This document shows positions 105 to 31,527 of a stretch of DNA of 64,000 nucleotides, one piece after another. The translations under genes were made by a program, and so were the position numbers. The stretch is from Pseudobacteriovorax antillogorgiicola. GTDB lineage: Bacteria; Bdellovibrionota_B; Oligoflexia; Oligoflexales; RGVZ01. Under the pieces are notes generated by a model. It did no database searches. It was not told where the DNA came from and saw only the letters and a list, made by a program, of their open reading frames with translations. The stretch's first letter is position 1; every line of letters starts with the position of its first letter. Location of the stretch: assembly GCA_945898195.1 (NCBI GenBank), contig CAMDHM010000013.1, positions 93 to 64,092 of the forward strand, in the 5' to 3' direction.

Positions 105-614
105 CTACAAATCATCCGCTTCACATTCGTAAAATTCTGACTTCCCGAAGTAGATTGTTTTTCCCGTTCCAGCATCGCTAATGAATATTTTTAACGGAAT
201 CCACCATTCGTCCAGCGTAATTGCTGGGGAAAAAATCAAAAACCGTTCATCCTTTGCCCACTGAGCACTGAAGTATCTGGAAAGAATCTTTGAATTTTTT
301 GTCAAGCGATCTTTCTTGGCATCAGCAATCAGAAAAAGCGCACCCTCGGCAGAACTTTCATTCCATCGAATCTCGTACCGTCTGCTTGGTGAGAGATAGA
401 TATCTTCCACATCGCTCTTAACTATTATGGTTTTTTCCCACGGGGAGTCACAAAGATTAATCGTATTATCCAGGTATTTTTTGGCCCAAACGAGATCTTC
501 AGAATTCCTAAAAAACGCCCGAACCTCGCGGTGACGGTCGTATGACTTGTATACCCAACCAATCGCGCCTGCGACCAGTAACGGGAGCAAAATTTTTAAT
601 TTTTTTGATCGCAA
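105..614 (-). CDS. Hypothetical N-terminally membrane-anchored protein; possible partner/immunity protein of the upstream lysozyme-like gene
   Basis: 169-aa ORF with basic N-terminus and hydrophobic ILLPLLVAGAIGWV; TTG start 2 nt after the stop (617-619) of the extended upstream frame. Confidence 0.65.
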   Translation of the reverse strand: MRSKKLKILLPLLVAGAIGWVYKSYDRHREVRAFFRNSEDLVWAKKYLDNTINLCDSPWEKTIIVKSDVEDIYLSPSRRYEIRWNESSAEGALFLIADAKKDRLTKNSKILSRYFSAQWAKDERFLIFSPAITLDEWWIPLKIFISDAGTGKTIYFGKSEFYECEADDL

Positions 615-1911: not shown

Positions 1912-2787
1912 TCATCCGGTGGAGCCGTAGTTCACAATCAATAACTCTCCAATATTTCGTTCTTGCGACTTCAGATTGATCTCTCGTCGAGCACTGACCC
2001 CTATGAATCGGTACCGAGCATAAAGACCGCGAACAAATGGAGTATCGCTATTGCTAACCGCCCATCGGACGCCGCGTTGATCTAGTTCGTTGCAAAGAGC
2101 CGCTAGGCGGACATGATCCTTTGCTCGGAACTGGTCAGGAGTATAACGGTTGAAGTCAGAATATCCGCCCAGCTTGTAGTAAGGCGGATCGAAATAGACA
2201 AAATCGCCTTCATCAACACCAAGAATACCGCTTTCGAAGTCACCCTTATGAAGCTCCGCCTTTTTTAAGTATTGTGATGCTCGCTTCAAATTCTCAGGGT
2301 CGTAGTAGCGACGATCATACGCACCATAGGGGACGTTAAATTCGCCCTTGCGATTTACTCTAAATAAACCGCGAAAGCATGTCTTGTTCAGGTAAATAAA
2401 TTGTGCTGCGCGTCGATGCAGTTCAAGCGATTCCGGTCTAATTTTTCGAACATGAAGAAATTCTTCCTTCGTATTTTTGAAGGAATCAAGATGAGTTGCA
2501 ACTTGTGCCCAATCGTCTCGAATAGCGGTGTATGTGTCAATCAACCAGCCGTTTGAATCTGTAAGCGTGGCCTCAATCGGATTGAGTTCAAAAAAAACCG
2601 ACCCGCCTCCGAGAAAAGGCTCAAAGTATTTCCCAGAGAGAGGCGGGAAATGCACAGCCAAAGAACTGGCAAGTGCCTGTTTGCCTCCAGCCCATTTGAT
2701 AAATGCCGTTGCTGTGCCAACTTCTGCTGTACTCATCCGATGACTCTGTCCTTTTTCTTTATTCTCAAGCGTGTTAGTCATTGGCAA
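1912..2787 (-). CDS. dam: DNA adenine methyltransferase, Dam/DpnM (D12) family, probably GATC
   Basis: FIKWAGGK, YFEPFLGGGS, GLFRVNRKGEFNVPYG and DPPY motifs; true start may be a downstream ATG. Confidence 0.92.
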   Translation of the reverse strand: MPMTNTLENKEKGQSHRMSTAEVGTATAFIKWAGGKQALASSLAVHFPPLSGKYFEPFLGGGSVFFELNPIEATLTDSNGWLIDTYTAIRDDWAQVATHLDSFKNTKEEFLHVRKIRPESLELHRRAAQFIYLNKTCFRGLFRVNRKGEFNVPYGAYDRRYYDPENLKRASQYLKKAELHKGDFESGILGVDEGDFVYFDPPYYKLGGYSDFNRYTPDQFRAKDHVRLAALCNELDQRGVRWAVSNSDTPFVRGLYARYRFIGVSARREINLKSQERNIGELLIVNYGSTG

Positions 2788-2963: not shown

Positions 2964-3794
2964 GTGAAGACTGACATTGACAAGAGTGCCCGTTGGAGAA
3001 AATTAGGATGGTCTAGCCCGTTTTGGGAGCTTGTTAGATTCTATTGCTCCTTGCGTGGGAATGAGCAAAAGAAATTCTTACTTGACCTTAAAACGAAGGG
3101 CGGGTCCCCCTCTGCGACGCTGACCCTCTTGGGTTTATCTCCGGAGTCTATTGAGACTCTCACGGACTATATTCAGTATCGAACAGAACGGCTTGCTTCA
3201 GCAATCTCGAATCTCCGCTCTGAAGAAGAGGCGTTAGCTTACTGCAAGGCTGGCAACATTTCCTGGGTGGTTACCAAGACAAAAAGCAGGGATCACCACC
3301 AGTCCTCTCGCTGCATGATTGCTACGGTTTCCCACATTGCTGGCGAAGTCTGCTCTTCGTTCAAAATTGGCTTCGAAATCAGTCCTCAGCGACGGTGTGT
3401 GTGGAACAGAAGTGGTCACCTCCATGTTTCTGTCAGAAACTTAGACGGAGCGGTGCCTGGATTGCAGAACCCGTTCATTATTTGGGAAATTAAGGAATAT
3501 TGGGGCAAGACGAGTGGCGGAAGCAAAATGAGCGACGCGGTGTATGAATGCCATCTTGTCGGGAAAGAAATTCGGGACTGCGAACAGCGTGCCTCGATAA
3601 AGATATTTCATGCAGTCTTTGTCGATGGTCGTGAGCAATGGCTGAGTAGGAAGTCCGACCTTGCGCGTTTTTTAGACCTTGAAAGCCAGGGGCTGATTGA
3701 TCATTTATTTGTCGGACGTGACGTAGAGACGCAGTGGGAAAAAGTTCTTAAGACGGTCCTAAAAGAAGCTGCGGCAAAGAAACCCAACCCCTAA
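2964..3794 (+). CDS. Putative type II restriction endonuclease (PD-(D/E)XK-like)
   Basis: LDGAVP..WEIKEY catalytic-like motif; divergent from the MTase inside a mobile island. Confidence 0.65.
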   Translation: MKTDIDKSARWRKLGWSSPFWELVRFYCSLRGNEQKKFLLDLKTKGGSPSATLTLLGLSPESIETLTDYIQYRTERLASAISNLRSEEEALAYCKAGNISWVVTKTKSRDHHQSSRCMIATVSHIAGEVCSSFKIGFEISPQRRCVWNRSGHLHVSVRNLDGAVPGLQNPFIIWEIKEYWGKTSGGSKMSDAVYECHLVGKEIRDCEQRASIKIFHAVFVDGREQWLSRKSDLARFLDLESQGLIDHLFVGRDVETQWEKVLKTVLKEAAAKKPNP

Positions 3795-5724: not shown

Positions 5725-6900
5725 ATGCTGATACGAAACAAATATTTGCAATCAATTCATAGTAGCCTGCGTCAATTCCCTATTGTGGCGCTGCTGGGCC
5801 CGCGGCAATGTGGCAAAACGACGTTGGCGAGAGAGGTAGCTAACACTCAGACCGCAGCGCGTTTGAGCAGGCTCAATTATTTTGATTTGGAAGACTCGGA
5901 GGATCTGGCTCGGCTGGAGGATCCCAAGCTAGCCCTTAGCTCTCTTTCTGGTCTTGTGGTGATTGATGAGATCCAACGAATGCCGGGCCTGTTTAAAACA
6001 CTGCGATTTTTGGCTGATCGGCAAGACTCGACAACGAAATTTCTGATACTTGGTAGTGCAAGTCGAGACCTCATTCAGCAATCGAGCGAGTCACTGGCGG
6101 GGCGTGTTTGTTATGTGGAAATCACACCGTTTCAAATGGCAGAACTTCCGTCGAGTGACAATAGCTGCTTGTGGCTGCGCGGTGGATTTCCAAAAAGTTT
6201 TTATGCATCTTCTGAACAAGAAAGCTGGATTTGGCGAAACGAATACATCCGGACCTACCTGGAACAGGATCTACCAAATTTGGGCGTCCGTATTCCACCT
6301 ATGCATATTCGACGTTTTTGGATGATGCTATCACATTTTCATGGCCAAATATTCAACGCGTCCCAGCTCGCGTCTTCCTTGGATATAAGTGATCATACAG
6401 TTAAGCGGTACCTCGATATTCTTACTGGCACCTTCATGGTGCGGCAGCTCCAACCATGGTTTGAAAACACAAAGAAGCGGCAAATAAAATCGCCTAAAAT
6501 TTATTTTCGAGATTCTGGAATTTTTCATTTCTTGCAAGGAATTCAAAATCACGAAAGCCTGCTGACTAACCCAAAGCTCGGCGCGTCGTGGGAAGGGTTT
6601 GCTCTAGAACAAGTGATATATAAGTTACGCGCCACCCCTGAAGAAGCCTATTTCTGGGGTGTCCATGGAGCAGGTGAGTTGGATTTATTAATCGTGAAAG
6701 GCGGGAAACGAATAGGATTTGAAATAAAGCACACCAGCAGTCCAACACTTACTCATTCCATTAAATTGGCAATCGACGAATTGAAACTAGACCAGTTTTT
6801 TGTGATTTTTAATGGTTCAAAAAAATTTCAAATGGCTGACAAAGTTGTTGCGTGTCCGCTGCCCGAATTTATTTTGGATGAGTTTGAGCAAGATTTTTAA
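5725..6900 (+). CDS. AAA_14 ATPase with DUF4143 and C-terminal nuclease-like domain
   Basis: GPRQCGKTT Walker A, VIDEIQ Walker B, GSAS, ESLAGR, RGGFP, KSPKIYFRDSG, ELDLL..GFEIK. Confidence 0.92.
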   Translation: MLIRNKYLQSIHSSLRQFPIVALLGPRQCGKTTLAREVANTQTAARLSRLNYFDLEDSEDLARLEDPKLALSSLSGLVVIDEIQRMPGLFKTLRFLADRQDSTTKFLILGSASRDLIQQSSESLAGRVCYVEITPFQMAELPSSDNSCLWLRGGFPKSFYASSEQESWIWRNEYIRTYLEQDLPNLGVRIPPMHIRRFWMMLSHFHGQIFNASQLASSLDISDHTVKRYLDILTGTFMVRQLQPWFENTKKRQIKSPKIYFRDSGIFHFLQGIQNHESLLTNPKLGASWEGFALEQVIYKLRATPEEAYFWGVHGAGELDLLIVKGGKRIGFEIKHTSSPTLTHSIKLAIDELKLDQFFVIFNGSKKFQMADKVVACPLPEFILDEFEQDF

Positions 6901-6929
6901 TGGAGAAACTAGTTGTTATGTTGATTTGA

Positions 6930-6946
6930 GCTTGAATTTCCTACAA
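6930..6946 (+). repeat. oriIS-like 17-mer, copy 2 (direct repeat)
   Basis: Exact GCTTGAATTTCCTACAA 29 bp after the ATPase stop; marks the island's right edge. Confidence 0.75.
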
Positions 6947-6994
6947 ACGTTAACTCCCTTTATTTTTCCTAGTTTCGACCTTGAATCACTCTAT

Positions 6995-8254
6995 TTAAAA
7001 ACGATCGATATTGCGCGCGACGATGACAGCAGCCAGGAATTTCGGCACGTAGTCGACAGTTTCTTTCGGTAGTTGTCCGACAAGATGCCAAAAATCAGCG
7101 ACCCGTGATTGTTTGATGGTGCTGGCAATCTGAAAACGCTGAACCCGATTTTGGCCGCTATTATACGACGCGATCGCCAGCAAATAGCGCTGACTCCCGA
7201 AAGTCCGAATTAGCAAATTTAGATAAGCAGCGGCCGCCCTTGAACTTTTCACCGGGTCTGAACGTTCGTCAATTTTTCGGCTCAGATCGACCCGCAATCC
7301 ATACTCCCTGGCCGTCGCTGGCATGAGTTGCCAAAGTCCCCGAGCCCCAACCGGCGACATCGCCTCAATGTCATAACCTGACTCGATCCAGACAAGATAA
7401 CCAAGTTCCACGGGCAAATTTTGCTCGCGCAAGGCAACTTCTATTGGCTCGATAAACTTCTCACGGCGGCGCAGCAGGTCCTTGTGGTACCCGCGGACCG
7501 TAAACTTTGAAATCCAGAATTGGACCTTTGCGATGAAAGCATCATCCATAATCGACGGTGGGGTCTCACCGAATCTCACCGAGATATTTACGATTTCGTC
7601 CCAAATAAAATTCTTGTCTGGAGGGGCATTAACGATCCCATCTCCGGCAGGTTTCTTGATCTCCCGTGAAACCGGCGTAAGAGCCCGAAGTTCCACGGCA
7701 GGTTGCCGATCAACTCCGGACCGAAGATCCAAAACACCAACCCCAGTGAAAACCCCAAGAGCGAGGGCCAGACCGAACATGATACCAATCGAAACTGTCT
7801 TTATGCGATTCCCAGGACGCCAAGTAACATCACCGAATATTTTAGCCTCTTCGATATCAGATGGCCGTCTCCGTGACGACAAGCGGCTCATCGATGACAA
7901 CCTTCGCCTGAGGTGGCCCGTCATCCGGCTTGGCTGCAGGGCGTCCCAGATGCTACATTGAAAGGTCGATGTCTCTCCAACAGTAACCCTGTCCCCAGCT
8001 CGCAGTTTAGAAGTTTTGCGAAGTTGTTTTCCATTCAGGCGACTACCACCGTCGGAACCAAGGTCTTTGACCAGAACCTTGCCCGGGGCTCTGTAATAAA
8101 TACAAATATGCTTCTCAGCAATTGTGGGATCAGCTGGAACGACGGCTCCGCAGGTTGGGTCGGAGCCAACATAAAATAGCTCACCAGGTCCAATAGAATA
8201 GCTTTGTCCGCTAAGCGGACCAGAAATAAAACGAATGGTTACACGATCTGCCAC
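6995..8254 (-). CDS. FHA domain - TM - MltD-like lytic transglycosylase
   Basis: N-terminal FHA (DLGSDGGSRLNG..LRAGDRVTVG); TM IGIMFGLALALGVFTGVGV; SLT motifs IESGY, GARGLWQLMPATA, AAAAYL, ASYNSG, ETVDYVPKFLA. Confidence 0.88.
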   Translation of the reverse strand: MADRVTIRFISGPLSGQSYSIGPGELFYVGSDPTCGAVVPADPTIAEKHICIYYRAPGKVLVKDLGSDGGSRLNGKQLRKTSKLRAGDRVTVGETSTFQCSIWDALQPSRMTGHLRRRLSSMSRLSSRRRPSDIEEAKIFGDVTWRPGNRIKTVSIGIMFGLALALGVFTGVGVLDLRSGVDRQPAVELRALTPVSREIKKPAGDGIVNAPPDKNFIWDEIVNISVRFGETPPSIMDDAFIAKVQFWISKFTVRGYHKDLLRRREKFIEPIEVALREQNLPVELGYLVWIESGYDIEAMSPVGARGLWQLMPATAREYGLRVDLSRKIDERSDPVKSSRAAAAYLNLLIRTFGSQRYLLAIASYNSGQNRVQRFQIASTIKQSRVADFWHLVGQLPKETVDYVPKFLAAVIVARNIDRF

Positions 8255-8257
8255 CGT

Positions 8258-9883
8258 TCACCCCGCAACTGCATCCTCGGTTTCCGGACGAACCTCAAAT
8301 CGCAAATACATATTACCAATCTTCAAAACATCTCCATGGCAGATGAGCCTTGGTTCTGACAAAACAAAACCATTGACGCAGTCCTGTGGTCTTCTACCTA
8401 CTGCGGAAGGAAAAAGTTTCAATTGAGCTTTCCAGTTTTCAACCGTGATTTCAGCATGCTTGCGGCGTACTTTTCTGCTTTCAGGTAAATGAATACCGCA
8501 ACCGCCGGAGGTTCCTATTAAATTTCGCCCTTGCTTTACCGGAAGCACCATTCCAACGTTAGGACCACTAAGCACCGACAGCCAGCCCGCAAGGTCACTA
8601 TCGCGATATGGACAATTGCTAAAACTTCGCTTCACACGAAGGCCGCATGTCCTGCAACGGACCGTCCGAAGCCAGAGACGAAATCCAAGCCAAATATAAC
8701 GGACAACAAAACCAAGGGCAGTCAAAAGTACCAAGCAAAGGACGCCTCCGACGGCCCTCTCCGTCGCATTCAGGTCCAAAATTCCTGTGATTAGCTTCTC
8801 TCTCGTGCTCCGCGATTTATCAAACTGCGCTATATTTTCTTGCCACCGCCGTGGCAACGGTACAGATAGCAATCCCGACGACACGGATTGCCCGTGATAC
8901 CCCACCATCAGATTAAAGTAGGACACATTGCCTTCCGCTATGGCGCTCCTTCCATCCCAGGTGCCAATGAGTGGAAATAGATTGAATGTCGCTACGTATT
9001 CCTCATTTAAATTCGCAAGAACGTTCAGGAGTGCTGGAAACAGATCGACGCGCGACGAAACTTTTTGAATGAATCCGCCAGACATCAATTCCGGGCGAAG
9101 GAAAGGTGCCTCAGCTGATACGCCAGCGCCAGGTATCCGGTCTGCTCGCAATAGATAGACCGCAACATCATCAGCTGCGAGTTGGGAAAGGCAATCCTCA
9201 AGCGTTCGAATGCGCTCCCTCGAAGTTTCGGTTGGATTAGCCAATAGAATCAGGGCCTTTTGCTCGCCGGTCTTTGGCGCATAGCGCGACCACTCCTTGT
9301 ATTTTTTCGACGCGGCACAAACCAGCTCGCTTACCCCGGTAGAATTACCCTTAGGTTCAGCGTCAAGTAGCTTTCTTTGCAACGCACGAACATTGTCAGC
9401 TTCATCGGGAGTTGTCCCGGCCAACTCGCGCTGACCCTGCGATGAAACCGAAATGATCGATAAAAATTCGCTGCGGGTAAGCGGCAGATTCTCTGCAATC
9501 GTTTGCTGAAACTCCTGCAAGGCAGATTGCTGAATATTTGTGGCGAATGGGAGGGCGATCACCAGACGACGGGTTCTTGATTGCGATGCACTCCCAAAAG
9601 TTGTCAGAGACTCTGGCTTGATTTGCGTTTTGGTGGATCGGCCCAACTCCAAGATAAATGCGTCACGGTCCACGGTGGTAATGGGAAATGAAACATTGTT
9701 CTCAGATTCGAAAACCCGACCGTAAATAACCAGCTTGAATTCTTCCGTCGGCTCTAAACTTCGCACAACGATGTTTTTTGTCGCGGCCAAGGCGACGATC
9801 GGGGACATAAAAAAAGTGGCCGTCAAAAACGGAATAAACAATAGGTTAAAAACGCGAGTCATTTTCGTCGCCATGAATTTCAT
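8258..9883 (-). CDS. Signal peptide - VWA-like extracytoplasmic domain - TM - Cys motif - FHA protein
   Basis: Signal ending ALA; alpha/beta pattern (KALILLA, VAVYLL); TM near residues 378-395; CRTC..CPY; C-terminal FHA (GWLSVLSGPNVG..NLIG..HAEI..GDVLKIG). Confidence 0.75.
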   Translation of the reverse strand: MKFMATKMTRVFNLLFIPFLTATFFMSPIVALAATKNIVVRSLEPTEEFKLVIYGRVFESENNVSFPITTVDRDAFILELGRSTKTQIKPESLTTFGSASQSRTRRLVIALPFATNIQQSALQEFQQTIAENLPLTRSEFLSIISVSSQGQRELAGTTPDEADNVRALQRKLLDAEPKGNSTGVSELVCAASKKYKEWSRYAPKTGEQKALILLANPTETSRERIRTLEDCLSQLAADDVAVYLLRADRIPGAGVSAEAPFLRPELMSGGFIQKVSSRVDLFPALLNVLANLNEEYVATFNLFPLIGTWDGRSAIAEGNVSYFNLMVGYHGQSVSSGLLSVPLPRRWQENIAQFDKSRSTREKLITGILDLNATERAVGGVLCLVLLTALGFVVRYIWLGFRLWLRTVRCRTCGLRVKRSFSNCPYRDSDLAGWLSVLSGPNVGMVLPVKQGRNLIGTSGGCGIHLPESRKVRRKHAEITVENWKAQLKLFPSAVGRRPQDCVNGFVLSEPRLICHGDVLKIGNMYLRFEVRPETEDAVAG

Positions 9884-9891
9884 TCGGAGTC

Positions 9892-10686
9892 CTAAAGTAT
9901 TTTTACAAAAAAACTATGACTGCCAATTTGGACTTCATCTGAATCTAGAAGTGGACGACGGGTTGGATTCGTCCCATTCCCTTGGATCAATACACACTCC
10001 CCCGAAGCGACGGCAAAGTAGCCACTTCGCTGAGCTAACTTGGAATCAACGAGGGTTAGTTCCAGGTCTCTCTCCGAACCAAATTCGTTGTCGCCAGAAA
10101 CCAGCCGGAAATCCTGACCTGCGTAAGGTCCATATAATCCGACGAGCCATCCCAAGCAGACTCGTTTGGGGGCTTCATTACGGAACGTTGAAGAGGCCGG
10201 CCTGGGTCTCAACGTTGGCTTGTATCCGGGCTCCATGCGAAGGGCCGTGCGAAAAATAAAACGCGCCGCGCCAATTCCAATTTCGTCGCCGTCTAATAGT
10301 TGAGCCGAAGTGATTTGCTGGCCATTAACCAATAAACCGTCCCGCCCACCAAGATCATGCAGGCTGACCGCGCCAGATTCGATGCTGATTTCAGCATGCC
10401 TGACAGAAACGTCAGGGTGGGTCAGACAGATATTTGATTTATATCCAGACCCAATAGAATGGGTGCCATTGCAAATGCGAAAATCTTCGCCCCAGTGTTG
10501 CCCATTCAAACCGACAAGCCAGCCACCGACTGACTGGCCATTGAATCCGCCGGCGCTTTGCGTGGAGCAAAGAGAGTGGGCAAGACCGAACTGGGACTTC
10601 ATCGCTCCGCGCCCAAGTCCGCGTTCAGCCAAAGGACAGACCTTGCCCATCGCAACTCCTCCGATCGAAATACCGGAGGAGCTCAC
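9892..10686 (-). CDS. Tandem FHA-domain protein
   Basis: Two repeats of GWLVGL.G...G.DFR; VSVRHAEI, LVNG, LLDGDEIGIG and LLDSDEVQIG. Confidence 0.85.
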   Translation of the reverse strand: MSSSGISIGGVAMGKVCPLAERGLGRGAMKSQFGLAHSLCSTQSAGGFNGQSVGGWLVGLNGQHWGEDFRICNGTHSIGSGYKSNICLTHPDVSVRHAEISIESGAVSLHDLGGRDGLLVNGQQITSAQLLDGDEIGIGAARFIFRTALRMEPGYKPTLRPRPASSTFRNEAPKRVCLGWLVGLYGPYAGQDFRLVSGDNEFGSERDLELTLVDSKLAQRSGYFAVASGECVLIQGNGTNPTRRPLLDSDEVQIGSHSFFVKIL

Positions 10687-10693
10687 AAGCTGC

Positions 10694-11779
10694 CTACCGG
10701 GTGAAAATCAAATTTTTTCCATCCAGCATTTTTTCTGCCGGCACAACTTCACCAATCACTGCTGCAGAGACGAAACCAGCAGATCTTATCGCCTTCAATG
10801 CGTCTGCAGCCTGCTCAGCTGGGAGCGAAAGAAACAATCCACCTGACGTTTGAGGATCAACAACTAACTTCCGACGCACCTCAGTCCACTTTGCTGCATC
10901 GGCTCCATCAAGGTTCCACGCAACTTTCGCCCTCGTGTAAACATCATTGCTTGTGTGAGCCCGGGTCAAGTGACCCGCCTCAAGGCATTCAAAGCATCCC
11001 TTTAGTGTAGGCAAAGAATCAGGATTGATCAAAAATCCGCATCCGCTAGCTTCGGCCATCTGCATCGCATGCCCAGCCAACCCAAATCCGGTGATGTCGG
11101 TTGCGGCATTGACGGTAAATGGCGCCATCGCGTCGATCACATCGTTGATGGTGGTCATGCTCTCAATTGCGCCCTGGATCCAGGGTAACGAGGCTTCCCC
11201 CTTTTTAAGCGCGGCCGTAATGGTTCCGGTTCCCAAGCCCTTGGTGAGAATTAAAGCATCCCCGGGCCTGGCGCCCGCATTCGTCCAATGGCGACCCTTG
11301 TGCACAAAGCCACTGACCGAAAAACCCATTTTCAGGGTGTCATCATCGATCGTATGGCCTCCCCCCAAAGCAATCCCCGCCCGATTCAATACAGCCATCG
11401 CGCCGTCCATGAGGGGACGAATCATTTCCAAAGGCAAAACGCTCGAAGGAAACGCCAAGATAGTCATCGCCGTCGCCGGTTTACCACCCATCGCGTAAAC
11501 GTCGCTGATCGCATTGGCTGCTGCAACCGCACCGAAATCAAAGGCAGAATCAACAATTGGGGTGAAAAAATCCAAGGTTTGAACCAAAAGCCGTCCATCG
11601 CCAAGGTCCCACAAACAAGCATCATCCATCGTCTCATGGCCAACTAAGAGCTCTGCGGGGCGATTCTGCTTTAGTCCTGACAAAACTTCGCGCAGTGCAC
11701 CTGCCGGCAATTTTGCGGCACAGCCACCTTTTTGAACGGTTTGCGTCAATTTAATTTCGGTCATGTTTATCTTGTCCAT
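10694..11779 (-). CDS. selD: Selenide, water dikinase (selenophosphate synthetase), Cys form
   Basis: GGCAAK, DDA, QTLDFFTPIVD, ANAISDVYAMGG, GGHT, TDITGFGLAGH, DPQTSGGL. Confidence 0.96.
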   Translation of the reverse strand: MDKINMTEIKLTQTVQKGGCAAKLPAGALREVLSGLKQNRPAELLVGHETMDDACLWDLGDGRLLVQTLDFFTPIVDSAFDFGAVAAANAISDVYAMGGKPATAMTILAFPSSVLPLEMIRPLMDGAMAVLNRAGIALGGGHTIDDDTLKMGFSVSGFVHKGRHWTNAGARPGDALILTKGLGTGTITAALKKGEASLPWIQGAIESMTTINDVIDAMAPFTVNAATDITGFGLAGHAMQMAEASGCGFLINPDSLPTLKGCFECLEAGHLTRAHTSNDVYTRAKVAWNLDGADAAKWTEVRRKLVVDPQTSGGLFLSLPAEQAADALKAIRSAGFVSAAVIGEVVPAEKMLDGKNLIFTR

Positions 11780-11794
11780 CGTGAGTTCCCTTTT

Positions 11795-12988
11795 TTATCC
11801 CAGGCGACTTCTGCCATGGGTCGACAAAAAATTATGGCAAGCGCGACGGTCGCCGCGGAAAACGACGTCCCGTTCCGTCAATTCGGTAGAACGAGAATAG
11901 GCCCGGTCATAATAGTGCTCAAGAAGGAGCTGAATCCATCCTGCCTGCACCTCAAACTCCCTCGGCATACGTCGTCCATCCTCCAAAAGCCTCAAAGCAT
12001 CTGCGGTGTTCTTTCCCCCAAGGCGCCTCTCCAAAACCTTGATGTTTTCCGCAAGCACCTTCCATAAATCATCCACCGCGCAACCGCCATCTAGTGGCCG
12101 AGTCACATAATCCATGAAAATAGCTGCCGCTCGTTCTTGCAAAGGTGAGTCCACCACCACGAGGGGGGCATGTCGCATTTGACTGCGAAATCCCTCCGGA
12201 ATACTGACGCGACCAATCATGGTGCTCTCGTCTTCCACCACAAGCCTGCCCTCAGCCCCGTCATACAAAAGTAGACCAAGTTCATTTTCAAAAGTTTGTT
12301 GAGACGGTTGTGGCATACGCTGACCATCAATGCCTACAGCGTGACCAAACGAACTACCCCGGTGACGCGCCATACCCTCAAGGTCCACAATGCGATTTTT
12401 CTCGAATCCCGGGTCATTGAATAATTCGTGAAGCAGAATTGTTTTTCCGGAGCCGGTCATTCCAGCCAAAAGATCCATATCATGTGGTGCAGAAATTTTT
12501 TCCAGCAGCAATCCGCGCAGACTTTTGTAGCCACCAGACAAGCGGACGACGTCAACGGCATGAGCTCCGCCTTGATGCGAACCTGCCGCAGCGGCGATAA
12601 GCTCAGCCAACCAAGACGCCGCCAATTGAGACCTCAGTCCACCACGCCAACAAGACACAAGAATCCGGAGCGGAGCTGGTCCACGCTGAGCGCGCAGGCG
12701 TTGGGCCTGACCAAACCATTCTGCTGCACGTGCTGTGCGCTTTTCCCATACTAATTCCACGCCAAGATCGATTGCGGCCTGCTGCCCGCGCCTTTTATAA
12801 GTAAGCCCGACCTGATGGCGCTCATTATCATCCAAAACCGGACACGAGATCGCCCCTGGAATGTGCCCTTCAGCGAATTCACGAGGAGCCCGCACATCGA
12901 CTAAAATCCACGGCTCTCTTGCAAGTAAAAACGCCTCGGGGGCCATGATCGGAGTTTCAATGTACGGCTGTGGCAAATTGTCCATCAA
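11795..12988 (-). CDS. selU: tRNA 2-selenouridine synthase
   Basis: Rhodanese DVRAP.EF..GHIPGA, CWRGGLRS, GMTGSGKT, DLEG.A.HRGSSFG, QPSQQTFEN, EDES..IG; adjacent to selD. Confidence 0.95.
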   Translation of the reverse strand: MMDNLPQPYIETPIMAPEAFLLAREPWILVDVRAPREFAEGHIPGAISCPVLDDNERHQVGLTYKRRGQQAAIDLGVELVWEKRTARAAEWFGQAQRLRAQRGPAPLRILVSCWRGGLRSQLAASWLAELIAAAAGSHQGGAHAVDVVRLSGGYKSLRGLLLEKISAPHDMDLLAGMTGSGKTILLHELFNDPGFEKNRIVDLEGMARHRGSSFGHAVGIDGQRMPQPSQQTFENELGLLLYDGAEGRLVVEDESTMIGRVSIPEGFRSQMRHAPLVVVDSPLQERAAAIFMDYVTRPLDGGCAVDDLWKVLAENIKVLERRLGGKNTADALRLLEDGRRMPREFEVQAGWIQLLLEHYYDRAYSRSTELTERDVVFRGDRRACHNFLSTHGRSRLG

Positions 12989-13265
12989 TTTTCAAAATTC
13001 CATAATTATGAAGGCGTGCGAAGGATTCTTACTTAATCTTTCCCAGCGCTAACTGTCCACAACGAGCATCATCACAATTTGAAAATCCCAAAAAATGAAG
13101 AACAAGCAGCCGAAACTATTGGTAAATCACAAAAAAAACTCTGCCATCACCAAGCAAACTTTTATCTGACCCGCCTGTTCCACCTAATAGCGACATGATA
13201 AAATCAGAGTGAAATCGCCTAACCCAACTTCCGTCGTTTGCCTTGAATCCATGGAGGAACCCTTA

Positions 13266-14261
13266 ATGCGCCATCATTCGCTCCTGACTCTACTCTCGCT
13301 TCCGGTCTTACTCATGATCAATTCTTGTGGACCAAAGACGCACGGATCGCCGGTTAAAACGCCAATCATTACGGATCCACAGCCAACAATGGACGCCGAT
13401 GCCGCAGCCCTTCAGCTTGGTGAATTCGACTTATCAAAATCCCCAATAATCACAGCCGATGAAATAGAAAGGGCTGTCTCCGCCGTTTCTTTTCCCAAGA
13501 CCATCATCCTTGGACCAGGATCGTCTGCCGTTAACGCACTTCAAATTGCTCCTGTGCAACTCAAATTAACAGCCACCGAGTGCGATAGCGTCGGCCCAGC
13601 CCTTGACCGCATTACCGGCAGCGGTGAGACGATGACCTTTGACTTCGGGTACGACTATTCGACCTGCGCAAAACGCGAATGGGAAAAGGACGGTTCAACT
13701 GTTTCCAACATGAAATATCAGGTATCTCAGCACCTAAGCATGACCTGCCCAGGCGCCAACTACAATTCCATCAACGGCAAGTCGCTACAAGAGCTTGAGT
13801 CAAAGAAGCAAAGCAATTTGCTCGCGTGCAATTACAATGGTTCAAAAGACATCGCCTACACCTTCAAATTGCTTTTTGTGACCATTGCCTCCGGCACCGA
13901 CAAGGATGGCGCTGCATTTTCCGTCGATCAACGTTTGTCCAAGATGCTTGCAGGCACCGACGGATCTTGCACCCTCAATTCCACCGGCAACGTGGTCACC
14001 GTGAAAGAGTGCTTCCAAAGTGATCGCGCCCAGACTGAAGTCACCGGCATCGGCGAGCCAGCATCCGCATTGAATGTCGTGGCTAAAATAGACATGAAGG
14101 GATTTTCAGCAGCCCGAACGCTTCGTTACTACACCGGTTCAAATCCAGCGCCAGTTCAAGTCAACAACTGGACCGGCACTGCCATTTTTGATGGCACAGC
14201 CAAAGCCAGCCTGGCCCTCAGCAATGGCACTGACCACCATGAAGGTACCCTGACTCCTTAA
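13266..14261 (+). CDS. Hypothetical Cys-containing lipoprotein
   Basis: GGAGG RBS before ATG 13266; lipobox INSC; followed by a terminator. Confidence 0.75.
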   Translation: MRHHSLLTLLSLPVLLMINSCGPKTHGSPVKTPIITDPQPTMDADAAALQLGEFDLSKSPIITADEIERAVSAVSFPKTIILGPGSSAVNALQIAPVQLKLTATECDSVGPALDRITGSGETMTFDFGYDYSTCAKREWEKDGSTVSNMKYQVSQHLSMTCPGANYNSINGKSLQELESKKQSNLLACNYNGSKDIAYTFKLLFVTIASGTDKDGAAFSVDQRLSKMLAGTDGSCTLNSTGNVVTVKECFQSDRAQTEVTGIGEPASALNVVAKIDMKGFSAARTLRYYTGSNPAPVQVNNWTGTAIFDGTAKASLALSNGTDHHEGTLTP

Positions 14262-20258: not shown

Positions 20259-21191
20259 TTGAATTTACCGAGCAAACCAATTTTAATTTGTGCGGTTGCC
20301 GTTGTGTTGACGGCGTCTTGCGGCGGAGGACTCCCATCTCCGGATCTTGGCCAGACTAAAAAGAAATCCGACAATGCACAGCCGGCCATCAACTCGCTCA
20401 TCGAGCAGCTCCTACCTGAAGGCAATTTTATCGAAGCACTCTACACCGTAAACGCCTCTTCGGGGATCCTCGTCAATTGCAAAGGCACAACCAAGTTCAA
20501 CGTGACCACGCGATTCGCGATGAAAATGACGGAATCAAATATCGATTGCGGACTTTTCGGCAAGATGGACCTTGCCAGTTCCATGGCCGGAATGGACCCA
20601 CGCCGGGCGGAATCTGAACTCGGTGATATGTCAAAGTTCATCAGCAACGATGGCACGTTCATCCGCACCACCCGGTTACCAAGCTTTGAGTTCTACCCGC
20701 CGCGTCCAATGGTCGTCTCTGCTCTAAATCTTGATATTTCAAAAGTAAGGGTCGGTGGTCCAGGAGCCGTCGAAACCTTTAACGCACGAGACTTGCGAGC
20801 CAACATCAAAACGGAACGACAGGCAACGGGAACCGCCACTTATTTTGCTTTAGGAAAAAACGAAGTGATTGCTTCCAAGAACTTCTCGAAGCCGTTCAGC
20901 AGTATTTTTCGCTGGAAACTGCAATACGACGGATTCGCTGGTATCGACCGCATGGCTTCCATGCTGTTTAACAGCATGGAAGTATCATGGAACATGGCAC
21001 CCCTTGCGATTCCTAAAATCGTCATCGTAACGCGCCTAGGCAACGTGTTGGCTGGCGCCGCAAATAACGACGCAGCTGCAATGCAACAGATGGCCAGTAG
21101 CCTTTTGAACTCACCGTTTGGAAGTATGGCCGATTTTCTCGTTGGCGAGATCAAAATCGAGCTGACCTTGTTTAGTCAGAAGGGGTTATAA
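20259..21191 (+). CDS. Hypothetical lipoprotein (paralog of 22044-22964)
   Basis: LTASC lipobox; shares F.PPRP, W...P..IP and GE.....L motifs with 22044-22964. Confidence 0.75.
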   Translation: MNLPSKPILICAVAVVLTASCGGGLPSPDLGQTKKKSDNAQPAINSLIEQLLPEGNFIEALYTVNASSGILVNCKGTTKFNVTTRFAMKMTESNIDCGLFGKMDLASSMAGMDPRRAESELGDMSKFISNDGTFIRTTRLPSFEFYPPRPMVVSALNLDISKVRVGGPGAVETFNARDLRANIKTERQATGTATYFALGKNEVIASKNFSKPFSSIFRWKLQYDGFAGIDRMASMLFNSMEVSWNMAPLAIPKIVIVTRLGNVLAGAANNDAAAMQQMASSLLNSPFGSMADFLVGEIKIELTLFSQKGL

Positions 21192-21192
21192 A

Positions 21193-22047
21193 ATGAGGGA
21201 ATGCACCTTACAAAAAAGTGCCCTCGTTGGTATTTTGACTCTTGTTGGCGCCTGTGGCGCGCCATCGAAATCATCTCAATCTGTTTCATCGGGACTCAAT
21301 GCCACAGCCGCAGAACGCCTCGGTGGCATTTGCCTTAGCCTCCAGAATTCACAGCAGGCTCTTGTCACAGGACTCAAACGTTTTCAACCAACGAATTGCT
21401 CGGCTGGCGCCGACCGAAAACAAAAACTCACACGAACTTTATCCTTGGATCAACCACTTCTCGATAAGGCCACACGTCAAACTGGATCCAGTGTGGATGA
21501 CAAAGTCCTCGACATAAGTGCCTCCGCAACCGTGCAGCTTGGAATTTCTTTTGCACGATTTGCCGCCCAATTAGGTAAGGCCATGGCGGATTCCAAGACG
21601 TCTGGCAAGCCGCTATTTGACCCCAACAAACAACCACCGAGCACTGGAACACTTCAGGATCTCATGCAAATGCAAACAATCGAGAAAAAAAAGCTCGAAT
21701 TCGATGCAACAGGAAAATCATTTTCGGGTGCAATGGACGTGGTAAACAAAACCGCAACCCCGAAAATAAATTTGAATCTTGAAATTTCAGGAAAAATACT
21801 TGATGACTCCGTTGTTGTCCGTTTCACCAGCAGCGGAAGCAAGCCATACGAACAGTCGTTGCTTGAAAAAATCCAAGGGCTAATCCTGCTTGTTCCGTAC
21901 GACAACGATGTTTTGGCTGTCCTCTATGTTGATGCCAGCATTTATCAAATTTTGAACGGCGAAAAGGCCATGCTGGACCAGGTTGCTAAGGCGCTTGGCG
22001 GCGGTTTTGGATTAGTTTTCAGCGGCCTCGCTCAGGTGCAGCCATGA
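21193..22047 (+). CDS. Hypothetical lipoprotein
   Basis: LVGAC lipobox; tightly coupled within the operon. Confidence 0.75.
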   Translation: MRECTLQKSALVGILTLVGACGAPSKSSQSVSSGLNATAAERLGGICLSLQNSQQALVTGLKRFQPTNCSAGADRKQKLTRTLSLDQPLLDKATRQTGSSVDDKVLDISASATVQLGISFARFAAQLGKAMADSKTSGKPLFDPNKQPPSTGTLQDLMQMQTIEKKKLEFDATGKSFSGAMDVVNKTATPKINLNLEISGKILDDSVVVRFTSSGSKPYEQSLLEKIQGLILLVPYDNDVLAVLYVDASIYQILNGEKAMLDQVAKALGGGFGLVFSGLAQVQP

Positions 22048-22964
22048 TAAAAAAAACCACCATGCTGCTGAGCGCGTTCTTGCTAACTTTATCGCCGTTG
22101 CTCTCGTGGTCCTGCAGTAATGCACCGCAAAAAAAGACCCAACAAGGTGACACTAAAAACGCCGTAAAAGCCGCTGCCCCAACCCTTTTATCAAGGACTG
22201 TTTACGAGGTTCGGGTATTACCCCTTGGGCCTGTTCACAATTGCGAATCCACTGCAGGTTGCGATGTGGATGATTCCAGCAAAGTTCTGGTATTGGCGGG
22301 CGGCGAAATTGTCATGGAAACAATGTCCAACTTCTCCATTAAATTTGTTAGTGGATCGGTGAGCATCTTAAATAATCCTGCCCTCACCATTGATTTAAGC
22401 AAGAGCCTGAGCCAATTTGCACCGGACGCAACTCAAGACACGATGTCAGGCAACATTTCCAGCGACCTTGACGGTCATGTGGTAATGACCAAACGTATTG
22501 GCAACATAACATTTGATCCGCCGCGCCCCTTAATCTTGGGACCAATCATTCAGGACCCAAACGACTTTTCGAAGATCGACAAGGTCTACCCGGCGATTCA
22601 TTTCAAATCTACGGCAGACGCAAAAGGACCGGCCGTGGCGGGCACCGCAACGATCCATCTCAAGGTAATTAATGCACGGGAATCCTACAAACCTCGCCCC
22701 TCGGCAAAATTTGCCACGGCACCGTTTGAGGTTCTGCATTGGGAAATGTCTCTCGATAATTCAACGGCTGCAACCGAACAGAATGTTCAGGCCCTTTTGC
22801 TAAATCGCATCGCATTCTACTGGCGAACGAGGCCGATTCAAATTCCACGCCTGGCGTTGGACACAGACCTGGGCAGCCTACTTGGCGGAAAGTCGGATCC
22901 AAATACCCAAGCGATCGGAGAAGTTCGCGTGATTCTGGATGCAAAAGAAATCACCAGTTTTTGA
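22044..22964 (+). CDS. Hypothetical lipoprotein (paralog of 20259-21191)
   Basis: SWSC lipobox; ATGA overlap with the upstream gene; FDPPRPLIL, WRTRPIQIPRL. Confidence 0.75.
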   Translation: MIKKTTMLLSAFLLTLSPLLSWSCSNAPQKKTQQGDTKNAVKAAAPTLLSRTVYEVRVLPLGPVHNCESTAGCDVDDSSKVLVLAGGEIVMETMSNFSIKFVSGSVSILNNPALTIDLSKSLSQFAPDATQDTMSGNISSDLDGHVVMTKRIGNITFDPPRPLILGPIIQDPNDFSKIDKVYPAIHFKSTADAKGPAVAGTATIHLKVINARESYKPRPSAKFATAPFEVLHWEMSLDNSTAATEQNVQALLLNRIAFYWRTRPIQIPRLALDTDLGSLLGGKSDPNTQAIGEVRVILDAKEITSF

Positions 22965-22976
22965 AGCAAGGACGAC

Positions 22977-24350
22977 ATGAAGTTTTGGCCAACGACTCCG
23001 ACGTCACAACACATGCGCTGCATCGGCGTAGCTGTTTTATTGCTGACCCTCAGTGCTCCAGCCCTTGGTAGTCCATTTACCATGGGTGTTTCCTCTGCCC
23101 TGCCTGACGCGCAGAATGCCCAGCAGAACCCCGCACTCGCTGGTGCCATGGAGCAGACGGAGGTAATGGCGGCACCATCCATTTCCATTCAAAACACTTT
23201 CCTACTGCGATACCCTGACTCGGGAACCATTGAGAAGCCTCTTGGAATCATGGGTGATCTGACATCTTTCATTCCTGCCTTCATCTATAAAATCAACCCT
23301 CGTTTGGGCGTTGGAATTACTGAGATTGCGCCACCCCTAAAAATCAAGCAGGTGATCACGGGTGTTCCCATCGTCCTCCTTCATTCGACCCAGCTGATCG
23401 ATATCGAGGCAAATGTAACCCTGCATGGCGCCTTCGGCGGTGTCGTTGGTTATCGGTTTTCTGACTATTTGTCCTTGGGGGCCAAATTCAATTATCGCTC
23501 CGTCCTGATCGATGCCGATGTCGTCCCGGCAGGCGGCGGAGAGCCCCTGGCTAAGCAGCATATGGATGTGACGACGACAACGCTGATGGCCGGAATTCTT
23601 TTGGAACCCATTCCAAACCGCCTTCGTCTCGGGCTTTCCACTATAGTTTTTGGATCAAACACTTCTGCAACGAGCGTCGAATCTGCATTTGTTGCGCAGC
23701 AGAACGCATCGGACGGCAGTGGAAAAAGCACCACCACTGCGGCGGCAACCTTTTCCCAATTTATTGCCGGCGGCGCGTTTCTGCTTAGCCCTCGACGCTA
23801 TATCGCCGCTGACCTTGATTACAAAGCGACAAGTCCCACTGCAAAGGAGTTTTCTATGGTGGACTTCAAGGAAAAACCGATTGATGGCTATGCCCGCCTC
23901 GATTTCCGAATGACGGCCGAATGGGCGATCAGCCGAACAACTTCCGTTGTTGGTGGCTTTGCCATGGAAAATTCCAGCAAAGGTGCCGGTCGCCGTGGTA
24001 CGGACGATGATCCTGGGAAATCTGGATTCGGCAGTGGAGATGTGATCCAGATTTATACTGGTCAGGCTACGCTCTTGCCTGCGCAATCATTCATGGGGGG
24101 AGTTAAACTCTACTTTTTAAATGATCCAAAAAAAGAGCCGGACACTAAAAGGAAAACCCATCCTCACGCCCAAGAAAAATTAAAGCCTGAGAAGGAAGCC
24201 TCAGAGAAAACAAATCCAACGGGTTGGATTGTTGGTGTTGGCCTAGGTTATCGCAAGGCAACCCTTGGTATCGATTCAAGCGGCGAGCTGCCTGGGGCTT
24301 ACGAACAAACCAGGATTTACCTCCCACTCGAATTTACCCGCCGATTTTAA
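22977..24350 (+). CDS. Putative outer-membrane beta-barrel (FadL/PorV-like NPA motif)
   Basis: Signal peptide; MGVSSA..QNPAL N-terminus; alternating beta-strands; C-terminal Phe (EFTRRF). Confidence 0.7.
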   Translation: MKFWPTTPTSQHMRCIGVAVLLLTLSAPALGSPFTMGVSSALPDAQNAQQNPALAGAMEQTEVMAAPSISIQNTFLLRYPDSGTIEKPLGIMGDLTSFIPAFIYKINPRLGVGITEIAPPLKIKQVITGVPIVLLHSTQLIDIEANVTLHGAFGGVVGYRFSDYLSLGAKFNYRSVLIDADVVPAGGGEPLAKQHMDVTTTTLMAGILLEPIPNRLRLGLSTIVFGSNTSATSVESAFVAQQNASDGSGKSTTTAAATFSQFIAGGAFLLSPRRYIAADLDYKATSPTAKEFSMVDFKEKPIDGYARLDFRMTAEWAISRTTSVVGGFAMENSSKGAGRRGTDDDPGKSGFGSGDVIQIYTGQATLLPAQSFMGGVKLYFLNDPKKEPDTKRKTHPHAQEKLKPEKEASEKTNPTGWIVGVGLGYRKATLGIDSSGELPGAYEQTRIYLPLEFTRRF

Positions 24351-24700
24351 GCACGAAAAAACCCCCTCTCGGGGGCTTTCAGCTCTGACCACTTAAGGTG
24401 ATATTCAATTGAATTGATGAGAAATCAAAGGATTGGACTGAACTAGCAGAAAATACACAAAAACGGGAAAGGCTGAGAAATTTTGCAGTGGTCCGAGCTT
24501 TTTTTTCGATTGCACTATGGCCTTATATAGCTTGGAATCTAAGAATTCCTTAAGCTGACATGCTTCCTTTGCGCCCCGAAATCTGATCGGGTCTTTAATC
24601 TATATAATTCTTAATAACAAGTAAGTTTTAATAATATTAATACAACGGATTTTAATTAATCTGTAAATTACTGATTATATTGATATTTCATAAATTTTTA

Positions 24701-24727
24701 TAATGTTCTCCCTAATTTCTCCGATCC
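24701..24727 (+). promoter_or_regulatory. Sigma28-like promoter at the end of an AT-rich tract
   Basis: TAATGTT..: TAAT-N15-TCCGATCC. Confidence 0.5.
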
Positions 24728-24788
24728 CAAACTGGTCTGGAGATGGTTCCAGATTGGTCATCCCCTGAAGGCCTGCACGAGGGTTCGT

Positions 24789-25895
24789 ATGTTTGGTAAA
24801 AGAATCAAAAAATCCGCCGCACTGGTTTCTTTTGGAGCACTGGCCGCAGTCACCCAGTGGTTTTGGCCCGATCCAGCCTTGGCCGATCAATTCCAGCGCA
24901 TTTACCGTTCTCCGTACTTCTTAGGCCGCGGAGACACAGGTGTGGCTGTGGCCGACAACGAAGAAGCCATCTTTTATAATCCGGCTGGACTTGCGCAAGG
25001 TTCCGGCATTTTCAAAGGTTTATCCATATTTTCACCAGGAATTGAAATATCGAGCGACACGCGCTCCCTCGTAAAAGACTTGGCCTCGTCTCAAGGCGGC
25101 AACACGATCAGCAAGTTGACGGAACACATTGGGGAGAATCAACACATCGGATTCAACAACTTCTCAGGGTTGCTTTTCCGACGCGCTGCCATCGGCATCG
25201 TGACTTCAAATGAAACTGACGTTCTCGTCTACAAAGACCCAAAGCAAGGAGGCCTTGAAGCTGTCCAAGCCGACCTATACTCCACAACCGGATTGACCTT
25301 TACCCTTGCCGACTCGTTTTACGGCGGCAAAATGCTGCTGGGTATGACCCTTGCATACTATAAACGAGCGCAGGCCGAGTTGGACCTTGGCCTCCTCGAA
25401 GCTCAATCGCTCAACGATACTTCTAGTATTTTCGGATACGGAACAACCTCGCCCGTCACATTTGGTGCGATGTTTTTATTACCTGGAAAAAATGAATCCA
25501 GCATTGGAGTTACCATCCATAACGTCGGGGATGCCCATGTTACTCCCGACAATCCGGATCTATCGGTCGACAATTTAAAGCAACGAATTGACCTGGGCTA
25601 TGCATCCACGTCCAGTTCCAAAGCCGCCACGGCACGCCTCCTCGTCGATTACATTGACGCGACAAGTGCGTACTCATCAAACGTCTATAAAAAGCTTCAT
25701 GTTGGCGGTGAGATTGGACTCGGAAAACGTGTTGGTTTGAGTGCCGGGCTAAATCAAGGTGGTCCTTGTGCCGGGATTTTTATTGATGCCTGGCTGCTTC
25801 GAATCGACAGTGGATTTTACACCGAAGAGCTTAGCGACAAGGTTGGCCTGCGATCAGATCGGCGTTATTTCGTGCGTATTAAAGCCGGATTTTAA
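24789..25895 (+). CDS. Outer-membrane beta-barrel, TraF-like/PorV-like
   Basis: LGRGDTGVAVAD..AIFYNPAGL; LHVGGE, GLNQG; C-terminal RIKAGF. Confidence 0.8.
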   Translation: MFGKRIKKSAALVSFGALAAVTQWFWPDPALADQFQRIYRSPYFLGRGDTGVAVADNEEAIFYNPAGLAQGSGIFKGLSIFSPGIEISSDTRSLVKDLASSQGGNTISKLTEHIGENQHIGFNNFSGLLFRRAAIGIVTSNETDVLVYKDPKQGGLEAVQADLYSTTGLTFTLADSFYGGKMLLGMTLAYYKRAQAELDLGLLEAQSLNDTSSIFGYGTTSPVTFGAMFLLPGKNESSIGVTIHNVGDAHVTPDNPDLSVDNLKQRIDLGYASTSSSKAATARLLVDYIDATSAYSSNVYKKLHVGGEIGLGKRVGLSAGLNQGGPCAGIFIDAWLLRIDSGFYTEELSDKVGLRSDRRYFVRIKAGF

Positions 25896-25922
25896 AAACC
25901 GGATTGGCAGCAAGGGGATATC

Positions 25923-31324: not shown

Positions 31325-31527
31325 AAATCCCCCTAGTAGACAAACATTTACGGTGTTTGGTAGAAACGCCGGACCAATTACCGGCTTATATTTTGGGCAC
31401 AGCCACAGAGGCTTGTAATCTCTAATTTTTTTTAACGAAATGAGGTATAACGAGCACCACCATAGAAGTCAAGACCGCTTCAAGTTAAGATCCTGTAAAG
31501 GCCTTTTTTTACAGGTTTTTTTACGTT

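Follow-up and report, generated by a model that had tools for sequence, protein, structure and literature searches.

The stretch of DNA analysed here, referred to as the window, comprises 64,000 nucleotides of a genome classified as Pseudobacteriovorax antillogorgiicola (GenBank assembly GCA_945898195.1, contig CAMDHM010000013.1, positions 93 to 64,092; G000 in our genome set, 89.5% complete). It carries three consecutive minus-strand genes, labelled A, B, and C in their order of transcription, whose products combine FHA domains with a VWA fold in B and a lytic transglycosylase domain in C. Their open reading frames (ORFs) lie at 9892..10686 (A), 8258..9883 (B), and 6995..8254 (C) and leave gaps of only 8 nt (A–B) and 3 nt (B–C), in line with the three tightly coupled genes with gaps of 3–8 nt that a first-pass annotation had described from the sequence. 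Comparison across the phylum identifies A-B-C as one conserved, co-inherited unit. The three genes and the parts of their products are the following:

9892..10650, minus strand: gene A, a soluble tandem-FHA protein of 252 amino acids (Pfam, AlphaFold2 model, hydropathy); the ORF reaches a GTG at 10686.
Residues 1–37 of A, minus strand: sequence-conserved N-terminal segment, predicted to be disordered (predicted local distance difference test, pLDDT, < 50).
10246–10530 (residues ~41–135 of A), minus strand: FHA1 (Pfam and AlphaFold2).
9898–10158 (residues ~165–251 of A), minus strand: FHA2 (Pfam and AlphaFold2).
8258..9883, minus strand: gene B, 541 amino acids (AlphaFold2, structural match, Foldseek, hydropathy).
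9782–9883 (residues ~1–34 of B), minus strand: presumed signal peptide (N-terminal hydrophobic helix).
Residues ~35–100 of B, minus strand: predicted N-terminal beta-sandwich (AlphaFold2).
9002–9577 (residues 103–294 of B), minus strand: predicted VWA fold lacking the metal ion-dependent adhesion site, MIDAS (AlphaFold2 and structural match).
Residues ~296–344 of B, minus strand: predicted C-terminal beta domain of the extracytoplasmic part (AlphaFold2).
8684–8761 (residues ~375–400 of B), minus strand: predicted transmembrane helix (hydropathy and AlphaFold2).
8609–8656 (residues 410–425 of B), minus strand: CxxC-x10-CP motif, juxtamembrane and presumably cytoplasmic (sequence).
8291–8593 (residues ~431–531 of B), minus strand: FHA domain (AlphaFold2 and structural match).
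6995..8254, minus strand: gene C, 419 amino acids (Pfam, NCBIfam, hydropathy).
7955–8254 (residues 1–100 of C), minus strand: FHA domain, predicted to be cytoplasmic (Pfam, 43.2 bits).
Between the FHA domain and the transmembrane segment of C, minus strand: Arg/Ser-rich linker (sequence).
7730–7807 (residues ~150–175 of C), minus strand: predicted transmembrane segment (hydropathy window 150–168).
Residues ~214–264 of C, minus strand: conserved extension, predicted to be periplasmic (conservation).
6998–7462 (residues 265–419 of C), minus strand: MltD-like SLT catalytic domain with the catalytic residue E291 (Pfam SLT, NCBIfam MltD).

Distribution of the genes was followed in 131 genomes of the phylum, with most carriers being multi-contig drafts. 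A profile of the N-terminal part of B matched in 31 of these genomes and full-length or strong C-type matches were obtained in 32; all 31 B-positive genomes are also C-positive, and the one extra C-only genome (G021) is 66% complete and has C at a contig edge. Co-occurrence of the genes elsewhere, on which the first-pass annotation had staked its proposal in advance, is thus observed (31/31 for B and C), with the order A-B-C kept at the loci read. Carriers comprise five of the seven genomes in the genus of the window (g1), including G000 itself, 11 (B) or 12 (C) of the 14 genomes of genus g3, the only genome of g53, all 13 genomes of g54, which belongs to a different order of the same class, and one fragmentary genome of another family (G070). 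In addition, one C homologue bears the source label Silvanigrellaceae.

We read 16 modules in 14 genomes, i.e., 13 complete triads, two that are truncated at sequence ends, and one variant. Gene order was consistent with A-B-C at all ten loci of a first set (eight with all three genes and two cut by sequence ends) and at 7/7 loci of a wider set; B adjoins C at 7/7 loci of another family, and four of five further loci are arranged as A-B-C, the fifth reading FHA-kinase-FHA-B-C. This order and the tight spacing are kept at 25–45% identity and across two orders, B itself being only 25–29% identical outside the window's genus. Two or more B matches occur in 12 of the 13 g54 genomes, and in two of them (G107 and G109) the second locus is a complete second A-B-C triad (L030/L033 in G107; L031/L032 in G109), in which the second copy of B (g54b) has lost its three cytoplasmic cysteines. 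The same five clades are recovered in midpoint-rooted FastTree trees computed for each of the three genes. That the genes recur together and in unchanged order in other genomes makes the triad more than a chance grouping. The flanks vary from one genus to the next (selD and mnmH in g1; RNA methyltransferases, SpoU-type and others, with XPB and RecQ helicases in g3; other genes in g54), and A-B-C is a self-contained unit in this respect.

Gene C very probably encodes an active lytic transglycosylase, because 13/13 homologues keep the residues of its E-S, GLWQ, and YN motifs unchanged (E291, S292, G306, Q309, Y364, and N365). Pfam recognizes both an SLT domain (PF01464, 83 bits, cut-off 21.3) and an FHA domain (PF00498, cut-off 20.7), and the sequence displays the motifs IES, GLWQLM, and ASYNSG. 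The NCBIfam MltD model NF008050 aligns with residues 255–419 only (E = 1.6e-29) and scores 102.5 bits relative to an equivalog cut-off of 508, and the closest solved chain is the MltD-like 8rhe (E = 4.9e-21). The FHA domain of C matches the chlamydial FHA structure 3gqs, which is linked to a type III secretion system (T3SS), with an E value of 5.8e-9. These results corroborate the earlier description of C as an FHA/transmembrane/MltD-like protein with intact IES, GLWQLM, and AxYN-type motifs.

For gene B, an AlphaFold2 model built from 13 homologues (mean pLDDT 83.2) contains a long helix at residues 373–406, and hydropathy windows at residues 11–29 and 375–393 coincide with the presumed signal peptide and the transmembrane helix. 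Residues 103–294 of the model superimpose on VWF A1 with a Z score of 19.8 (root mean square deviation 2.4 Å over 179 aligned residues), and it is this match that makes the designation "VWA-like" correct by fold; Foldseek additionally pairs the region with integrin I domains, ITIH1, BatB, and ArnAB (8s05). B of the window has no Pfam VWA match, its g3 orthologue has weak ones, and the orthologue in the single g53 genome (G104) passes Pfam VWA PF00092 with 33.1 bits relative to the cut-off of 23.8. At the MIDAS (DxSxS...T...D), B of the window reads ALPFATN and LANPTE at the equivalent strands and the G104 orthologue keeps a MIDAS-type DNSS...TDG. The FHA domain of B scores 20.4 bits with Pfam PF00498, just under the cut-off of 20.7, and its model matches the FHA structures of GarA and OdhI in Foldseek (TMt 0.82–0.89). 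Pfam finds no kinase domain in B. Two cysteines on the presumed periplasmic side, C189 and C231, are present in 13/13 homologues, and C410, C413, and C424 in 11/13. The succession of signal peptide, VWA-like domain, transmembrane helix, Cys motif, and FHA domain that had been predicted for B is well supported by the VWF A1 and GarA/OdhI matches together with hydropathy.

The most likely translation start of gene A is the ATG at 10650 and not the GTG at 10686, because a GGAGGAG Shine-Dalgarno sequence lies 6 nt upstream of the ATG and the alignment of A homologues begins only at ORF residue 12–17; A would therefore be a protein of 252 amino acids. Pfam assigns PF16697 to two stretches of A and also matches PF00498 with 54.6 bits (cut-off 20.7), the AlphaFold2 model contains two FHA beta-sandwiches (pLDDT 77.5, predicted template modelling score 0.77), and hydropathy windows reveal no hydrophobic segment. 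The soluble FHA-FHA protein of the first-pass annotation is thereby retained, whereas its start at 10686 is probably to be replaced.

GR, SxxH, and NG are the motifs required for phosphothreonine binding by FHA domains, and the T3SS FHA domain MxiG-N does not bind phosphothreonine (PMC3162421). The arginine of GR occurs in 0/12 sequences of A-FHA1, 0/12 of A-FHA2, and 0/13 of C-FHA (two of which have lysine), i.e., in none of 37 FHA sequences of A and C, and in 4/13 sequences of B-FHA. The position is instead occupied by serine in 11/12 A-FHA1, 11/12 A-FHA2, and 11/13 C-FHA sequences. The window's own four domains read GS, GS, GT, and GS at this site, and the kinase-bearing variant of G104 likewise has no arginine there (GC, GT, and GS). 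A and C hence carry FHA domains of a non-canonical "G-S" type, without the phosphate-binding arginine. Retention of the other motifs is uneven: the SxxH histidine never varies in A-FHA1, B-FHA, or C-FHA, the SxxH serine is present in 6/12, 5/13, and 9/13 of these, respectively, and the NG asparagine is present in 0/12 A-FHA1 and 6/13 C-FHA sequences. The same substitutions in the phosphothreonine motifs are visible when A-FHA1 is aligned to GarA, and A-FHA2 is the most degenerate of the module's FHA domains. The full canonical set of a phosphothreonine reader (GR, SxxH, and NG) is not what these domains carry, and from their sequences they look like docking modules rather than classical readers of phosphothreonine.

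Origin of the module was approached with a profile of the extracytoplasmic part of B, searched against 1.84 billion representatives. A narrow family of 23 proteins, nearly all of 490–541 amino acids, is recovered at E ≤ 2.6e-28 and is followed by a gap. Among the weaker matches, 22 of the 25 that were scanned (out of 145 listed) combine a Pfam VWA domain with a C-terminal FHA domain in ~500–650 amino acids, and their consensus keeps both the MIDAS (DxSGS, SDG) and canonical FHA motifs (IGR, S..H, STNGT). For this wider class of VWA-transmembrane-FHA proteins, gene context comes from one locus and one abstract. The locus is that of the nearest outgroup, the metagenomic P0154, which lies between a gene for an FHA-kinase fusion and a 148-aa FHA gene; the latter is followed by an extracytoplasmic function (ECF) sigma/anti-sigma pair, and no SLT gene is present in this cluster. 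The module variant of G104 consists of an FHA gene (200 aa), a gene for a Ser/Thr kinase with a transmembrane segment (591 aa), an FHA gene (148 aa), B, and C in this order. Its kinase (L034:6060-7835, minus strand) comprises a kinase domain with HAD in place of HRD, the transmembrane segment, and an extracytoplasmic tail of ~130 amino acids. Neither a kinase nor a PP2C phosphatase is found inside the module in 13 of the 14 that were fully read. Judged by these relationships, the module appears to descend from signalling clusters of VWA-transmembrane-FHA, Ser/Thr-kinase, and FHA genes. The G104 variant could represent an intermediate between such a cluster and the kinase-less triad, an order of events that we infer.

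The predicted topology places all FHA domains in the cytoplasm and the VWA domain of B and the SLT domain of C in the periplasm. Hydropathy windows, the modelled helix at 373–406 in B, and the abundance of Arg and Lys next to each transmembrane segment, on the side facing the FHA domain, agree with this arrangement and so with the one given in the first-pass annotation. A complex of the two periplasmic parts, B(36–372) and C(205–419), was modelled from paired 13-row alignments alongside three controls. The pair reached ipSAE values of 0.58, 0.50, and 0.59 (best of the three controls, 0.00), with at least 84% of contacts common to the runs and a partner pLDDT of at least 81. Of 157 solved complexes, 116 attain the mark set for the modelling tool, as do 2 of 215 mismatched pairs; however, scores ≤ 0.60 are found for only 18 of those solved complexes and for both of the passing mismatches. 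The tool rates the result as weak support for a periplasmic contact between B and C, which makes it a hint rather than a demonstration of binding.

From these observations we propose, with a probability of roughly 0.5, that A, B, and C form a self-contained complex of the inner membrane, which has an active MltD-type lytic transglycosylase as its output and positions or gates this enzyme. The module would have arisen from a VWA-transmembrane-FHA/Ser-Thr-kinase/FHA cluster by gaining an FHA-tagged transglycosylase as its effector, and most lineages would have lost the in-cluster kinase and the MIDAS. In the complex, A may connect B to C through their FHA-bearing tails, with little part for phosphothreonine, and the periplasmic VWA domain of B may touch the catalytic domain of C; together these contacts would fix where or whether C cleaves peptidoglycan. 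The interpretation given in the first-pass annotation is upheld in part: the co-inherited module and its topology stand, and the sensor-adaptor-effector circuit is plausible, drawing support from the kinase-linked relatives, the kinase of G104, and the weak B-C model. The missing GR arginine (0/37) and the lost MIDAS speak against a circuit of the classical, phosphothreonine-reading kind.

Several points weigh against an inner-membrane complex of this kind. The sole contact that was modelled, the periplasmic one between B and C, is rated weak, and the topology rests on hydropathy and models. Kinase ancestry and the partial SxxH (9/13) and NG (6/13) motifs of C-FHA leave room for phospho-dependent binding. 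The trees of A, B, and C are shown without support values. Finally, the module is missing in 2/7 genomes of the window's genus and in 3/14 g3 genomes and is, for this reason, dispensable or lineage-variable. In two genomes of the window's genus (G001 and G002, each ~90% complete), protein searches find neither A-B-C nor selD nor the nearby glucokinase, and because selD and glucokinase are also absent, no clean indel can be demonstrated there.

Phosphorylation offers a possible alternative, in which Ser/Thr kinases encoded elsewhere mark threonines on A, B, or C, and reading of these marks by the FHA domains switches or moves the transglycosylase in the manner of PpkA-Fha1. A transmembrane kinase does lie inside the G104 module, an FHA-kinase belongs to the nearest outgroup cluster (P0154), and the window's genome has four Pkinase matches above cut-off. 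The invariant SxxH histidine in A-FHA1, B-FHA, and C-FHA, together with the C-FHA serine and NG motif in the proportions given above, would fit such reading, and the logic of a periplasmic VWA domain in PpkA acting with Fha1 is known (PMC3224232, PMC1262709). However, the absence of the GR arginine from the FHA domains of A and C extends to the kinase-bearing G104, homologue alignments contain no invariant threonine in the conserved linkers of A and C, and all fully read modules except one are devoid of kinase and phosphatase.

A doubtful extension of the proposed complex is a kinase-independent relay through its FHA domains, in which the MIDAS-less VWA domain of B senses a ligand or the status of the wall and passes the signal through the transmembrane helix and FHA domain of B to A and from there to the FHA domain of C. 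If true, an out-in-out signal would cross the inner membrane and contacts among FHA proteins, not phosphorylation, would control cleavage, which would constitute a new class of transmembrane control over peptidoglycan hydrolases that is built from degenerate signalling parts. FtsEX-type control of hydrolases follows a comparable logic.

It is decidedly unlikely that the triad acts as a scaffold and space-maker for an envelope-spanning machine, with the FHA-transmembrane proteins forming rings like those of SctD/YscD and C opening the wall. All FHA domains of the module score at least as high on the YscD-type PF16697 as on PF00498, C-FHA matches 3gqs as described above, and a precedent for secretion complexes exists in MltE, which is recruited and activated by the T6SS (type VI secretion system; PMC13584744). 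Against this, none of the lineages read has conserved genes for secretion, pili, or flagella beside the module, the NCBIfam scores for SctD (TIGR02500, 17.9–23.4 bits relative to a cut-off of 86) and TagH (TIGR03354, 19.3 bits relative to 120) are far too low, and the T6SS sheath protein TssC (PF05943), found in 14/131 genomes (13/13 of g55 and one of g52), occurs in 0/31 carriers, G000 included. The first-pass annotation had considered assembly of an envelope machine, which we do not sustain given flanks that are variable and of housekeeping type and the distribution of TssC. Least probable by far is a fortuitous neighbourhood of genes with unrelated roles, one for an FHA regulator of generic type, one for a membrane protein with a VWA domain, and one for a transglycosylase with a housekeeping task, since, common as each domain type is (the genome has eight FHA and several SLT matches), B and C co-occur in 31/31 genomes, order and spacing persist at 25–45% identity across two orders, the triad is duplicated as a unit in g54, and A, B, and C resolve the same clades.

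Two further readings were rejected. A T6SS accessory role fails on the distribution of TssC just described, and a role in anti-phage defence on PADLOC defence models, which returned 0 families at E ≤ 0.01 for A, B, and C. As a separate observation, none of the 131 genomes has both TssC and A-B-C (14 vs. 31, overlap 0), an exclusion that may reflect ancestry alone because the pattern follows lineages.

An inner-membrane complex of A, B, and C would share parts with several known systems. Clusters of VWA, kinase, and FHA genes, with or without PP2C, are represented by P0154 and by the VWA/STPK/FHA/PP2C operon DRA0331-0334 of Deinococcus radiodurans, the latter as given in an abstract (bioRxiv 10.64898/2026.01.23.701218). 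As in these clusters, VWA and FHA proteins are encoded together, the nearest relatives of B outside its own family consist of signal peptide, VWA domain, transmembrane helix, and FHA domain, and one module variant keeps the kinase. Unlike them, the module includes an FHA-bearing lytic transglycosylase, is without kinase and phosphatase in 13 of 14 fully read cases, and has lost the MIDAS and the FHA arginine. The PpkA-PppA-Fha1 system (TagE/TagG/TagH) is the pathway for threonine phosphorylation in the H1-T6SS of Pseudomonas aeruginosa; there, a membrane protein that crosses the membrane once and has its VWA domain in the periplasm is coupled to a cytoplasmic FHA scaffold that governs an envelope process, as might be the case here (PMC3224232, PMC1262709, PMC13584744). 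In contrast, B has an FHA domain where PpkA has its kinase, and TssC was not found in the window's genome.

With MltD (family 1D), C has in common an alignable SLT domain and the N-terminal extension of that domain as well as the ES, GLWQ, and YN motifs; however, C has neither a LysM domain (no Pfam match) nor a lipoprotein signal and carries a cytoplasmic FHA domain and a transmembrane anchor instead. SctD proteins (YscD/MxiG/PrgH) resemble B and C in having a cytoplasmic FHA domain, one transmembrane segment, and a periplasmic domain, and a non-canonical phosphothreonine pocket (PMC3162421), but in the periplasm C has an enzyme and B a VWA domain where SctD has ring-building domains, and T3SS genes are not nearby. 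In Sulfolobus, ArnA (zinc-ribbon and FHA) and ArnB (VWA) are regulators of archaellum expression; like B, ArnA has a Cys-rich motif directly before its FHA domain and a VWA partner, whereas B unites VWA and FHA in one chain on opposite sides of the membrane and has three conserved cysteines only. In none of these families does membership extend to the module beyond the level of single domains. A literature search returned no paper that, in the text available, describes an FHA-SLT fusion or the A-B-C triad, which is compatible with the claim of the first-pass annotation that the arrangement is undescribed.

Lytic transglycosylases are dangerous enzymes, and their known restraint is by periplasmic partners or by recruitment to secretion machines; to our knowledge, how cells restrain and direct them is poorly understood. 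A transglycosylase that bears an FHA domain and is always encoded with VWA-transmembrane-FHA and tandem-FHA proteins suggests that a dedicated complex in the membrane conveys control from within the cell. The module would also exemplify a Ser/Thr-kinase cluster that turned kinase-less and apparently phospho-independent, with one intermediate form extant. If confirmed, A-B-C would allow wall cleavage and its control across the membrane to be studied in a small set of three proteins; the reach of the module is limited by a narrow distribution (31/131 genomes of one phylum).

Upstream, A is preceded on its own strand by selD (10694..11779) and mnmH (11795..12988), and the remaining neighbours in the window include an AAA ATPase and other non-secretion genes. 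A functional tie to selD and mnmH was rejected, as these neighbours are confined to the window's genus and the flanks in g3 and g54 differ. A scan of 6700–13300 for promoters and terminators yielded a number of sites not above that in shuffled sequence. One further feature was predicted in the region that separates the stop codon of selD from the start of A:

10646..10690, minus strand: RNA hairpin, minimum free energy −31.3 kcal/mol, z = −3.83.

None of 200 shuffled sequences folds as well. In this hairpin, an anti-Shine-Dalgarno sequence CUCCUCC (10675–10681) pairs with the Shine-Dalgarno sequence of A, GGAGGAG (10656–10662), and the pairing stem is predicted at 5/5 loci of the same genus with small covariation. 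An Rfam search of the hairpin region gave no match. The hairpin may serve translational control of A or, alternatively, processing or termination of the selD transcript.

Elsewhere in the window, a DUF4143/AAA_14 ATPase (5725–6900, plus strand) is encoded just downstream of gene C, and a D12-class N6-adenine DNA methyltransferase (1912–2787, minus strand) adjoins a DUF7687 protein (2964–3794, plus strand). Six consecutive ORFs of 310, 284, 306, 457, 368, and 239 aa, some of which overlap or abut, occupy 20259–26642 on the plus strand, and none of them matches a Pfam family at E ≤ 1e-5. Lastly, a purine riboswitch aptamer at 31317–31413 (minus strand; 45.6 bits, gathering score 37) is situated directly upstream of an ORF (30389–31324, minus strand) with an S1/P1 nuclease domain (E = 3.3e-8) and would place a nuclease gene under a switch that senses purines.

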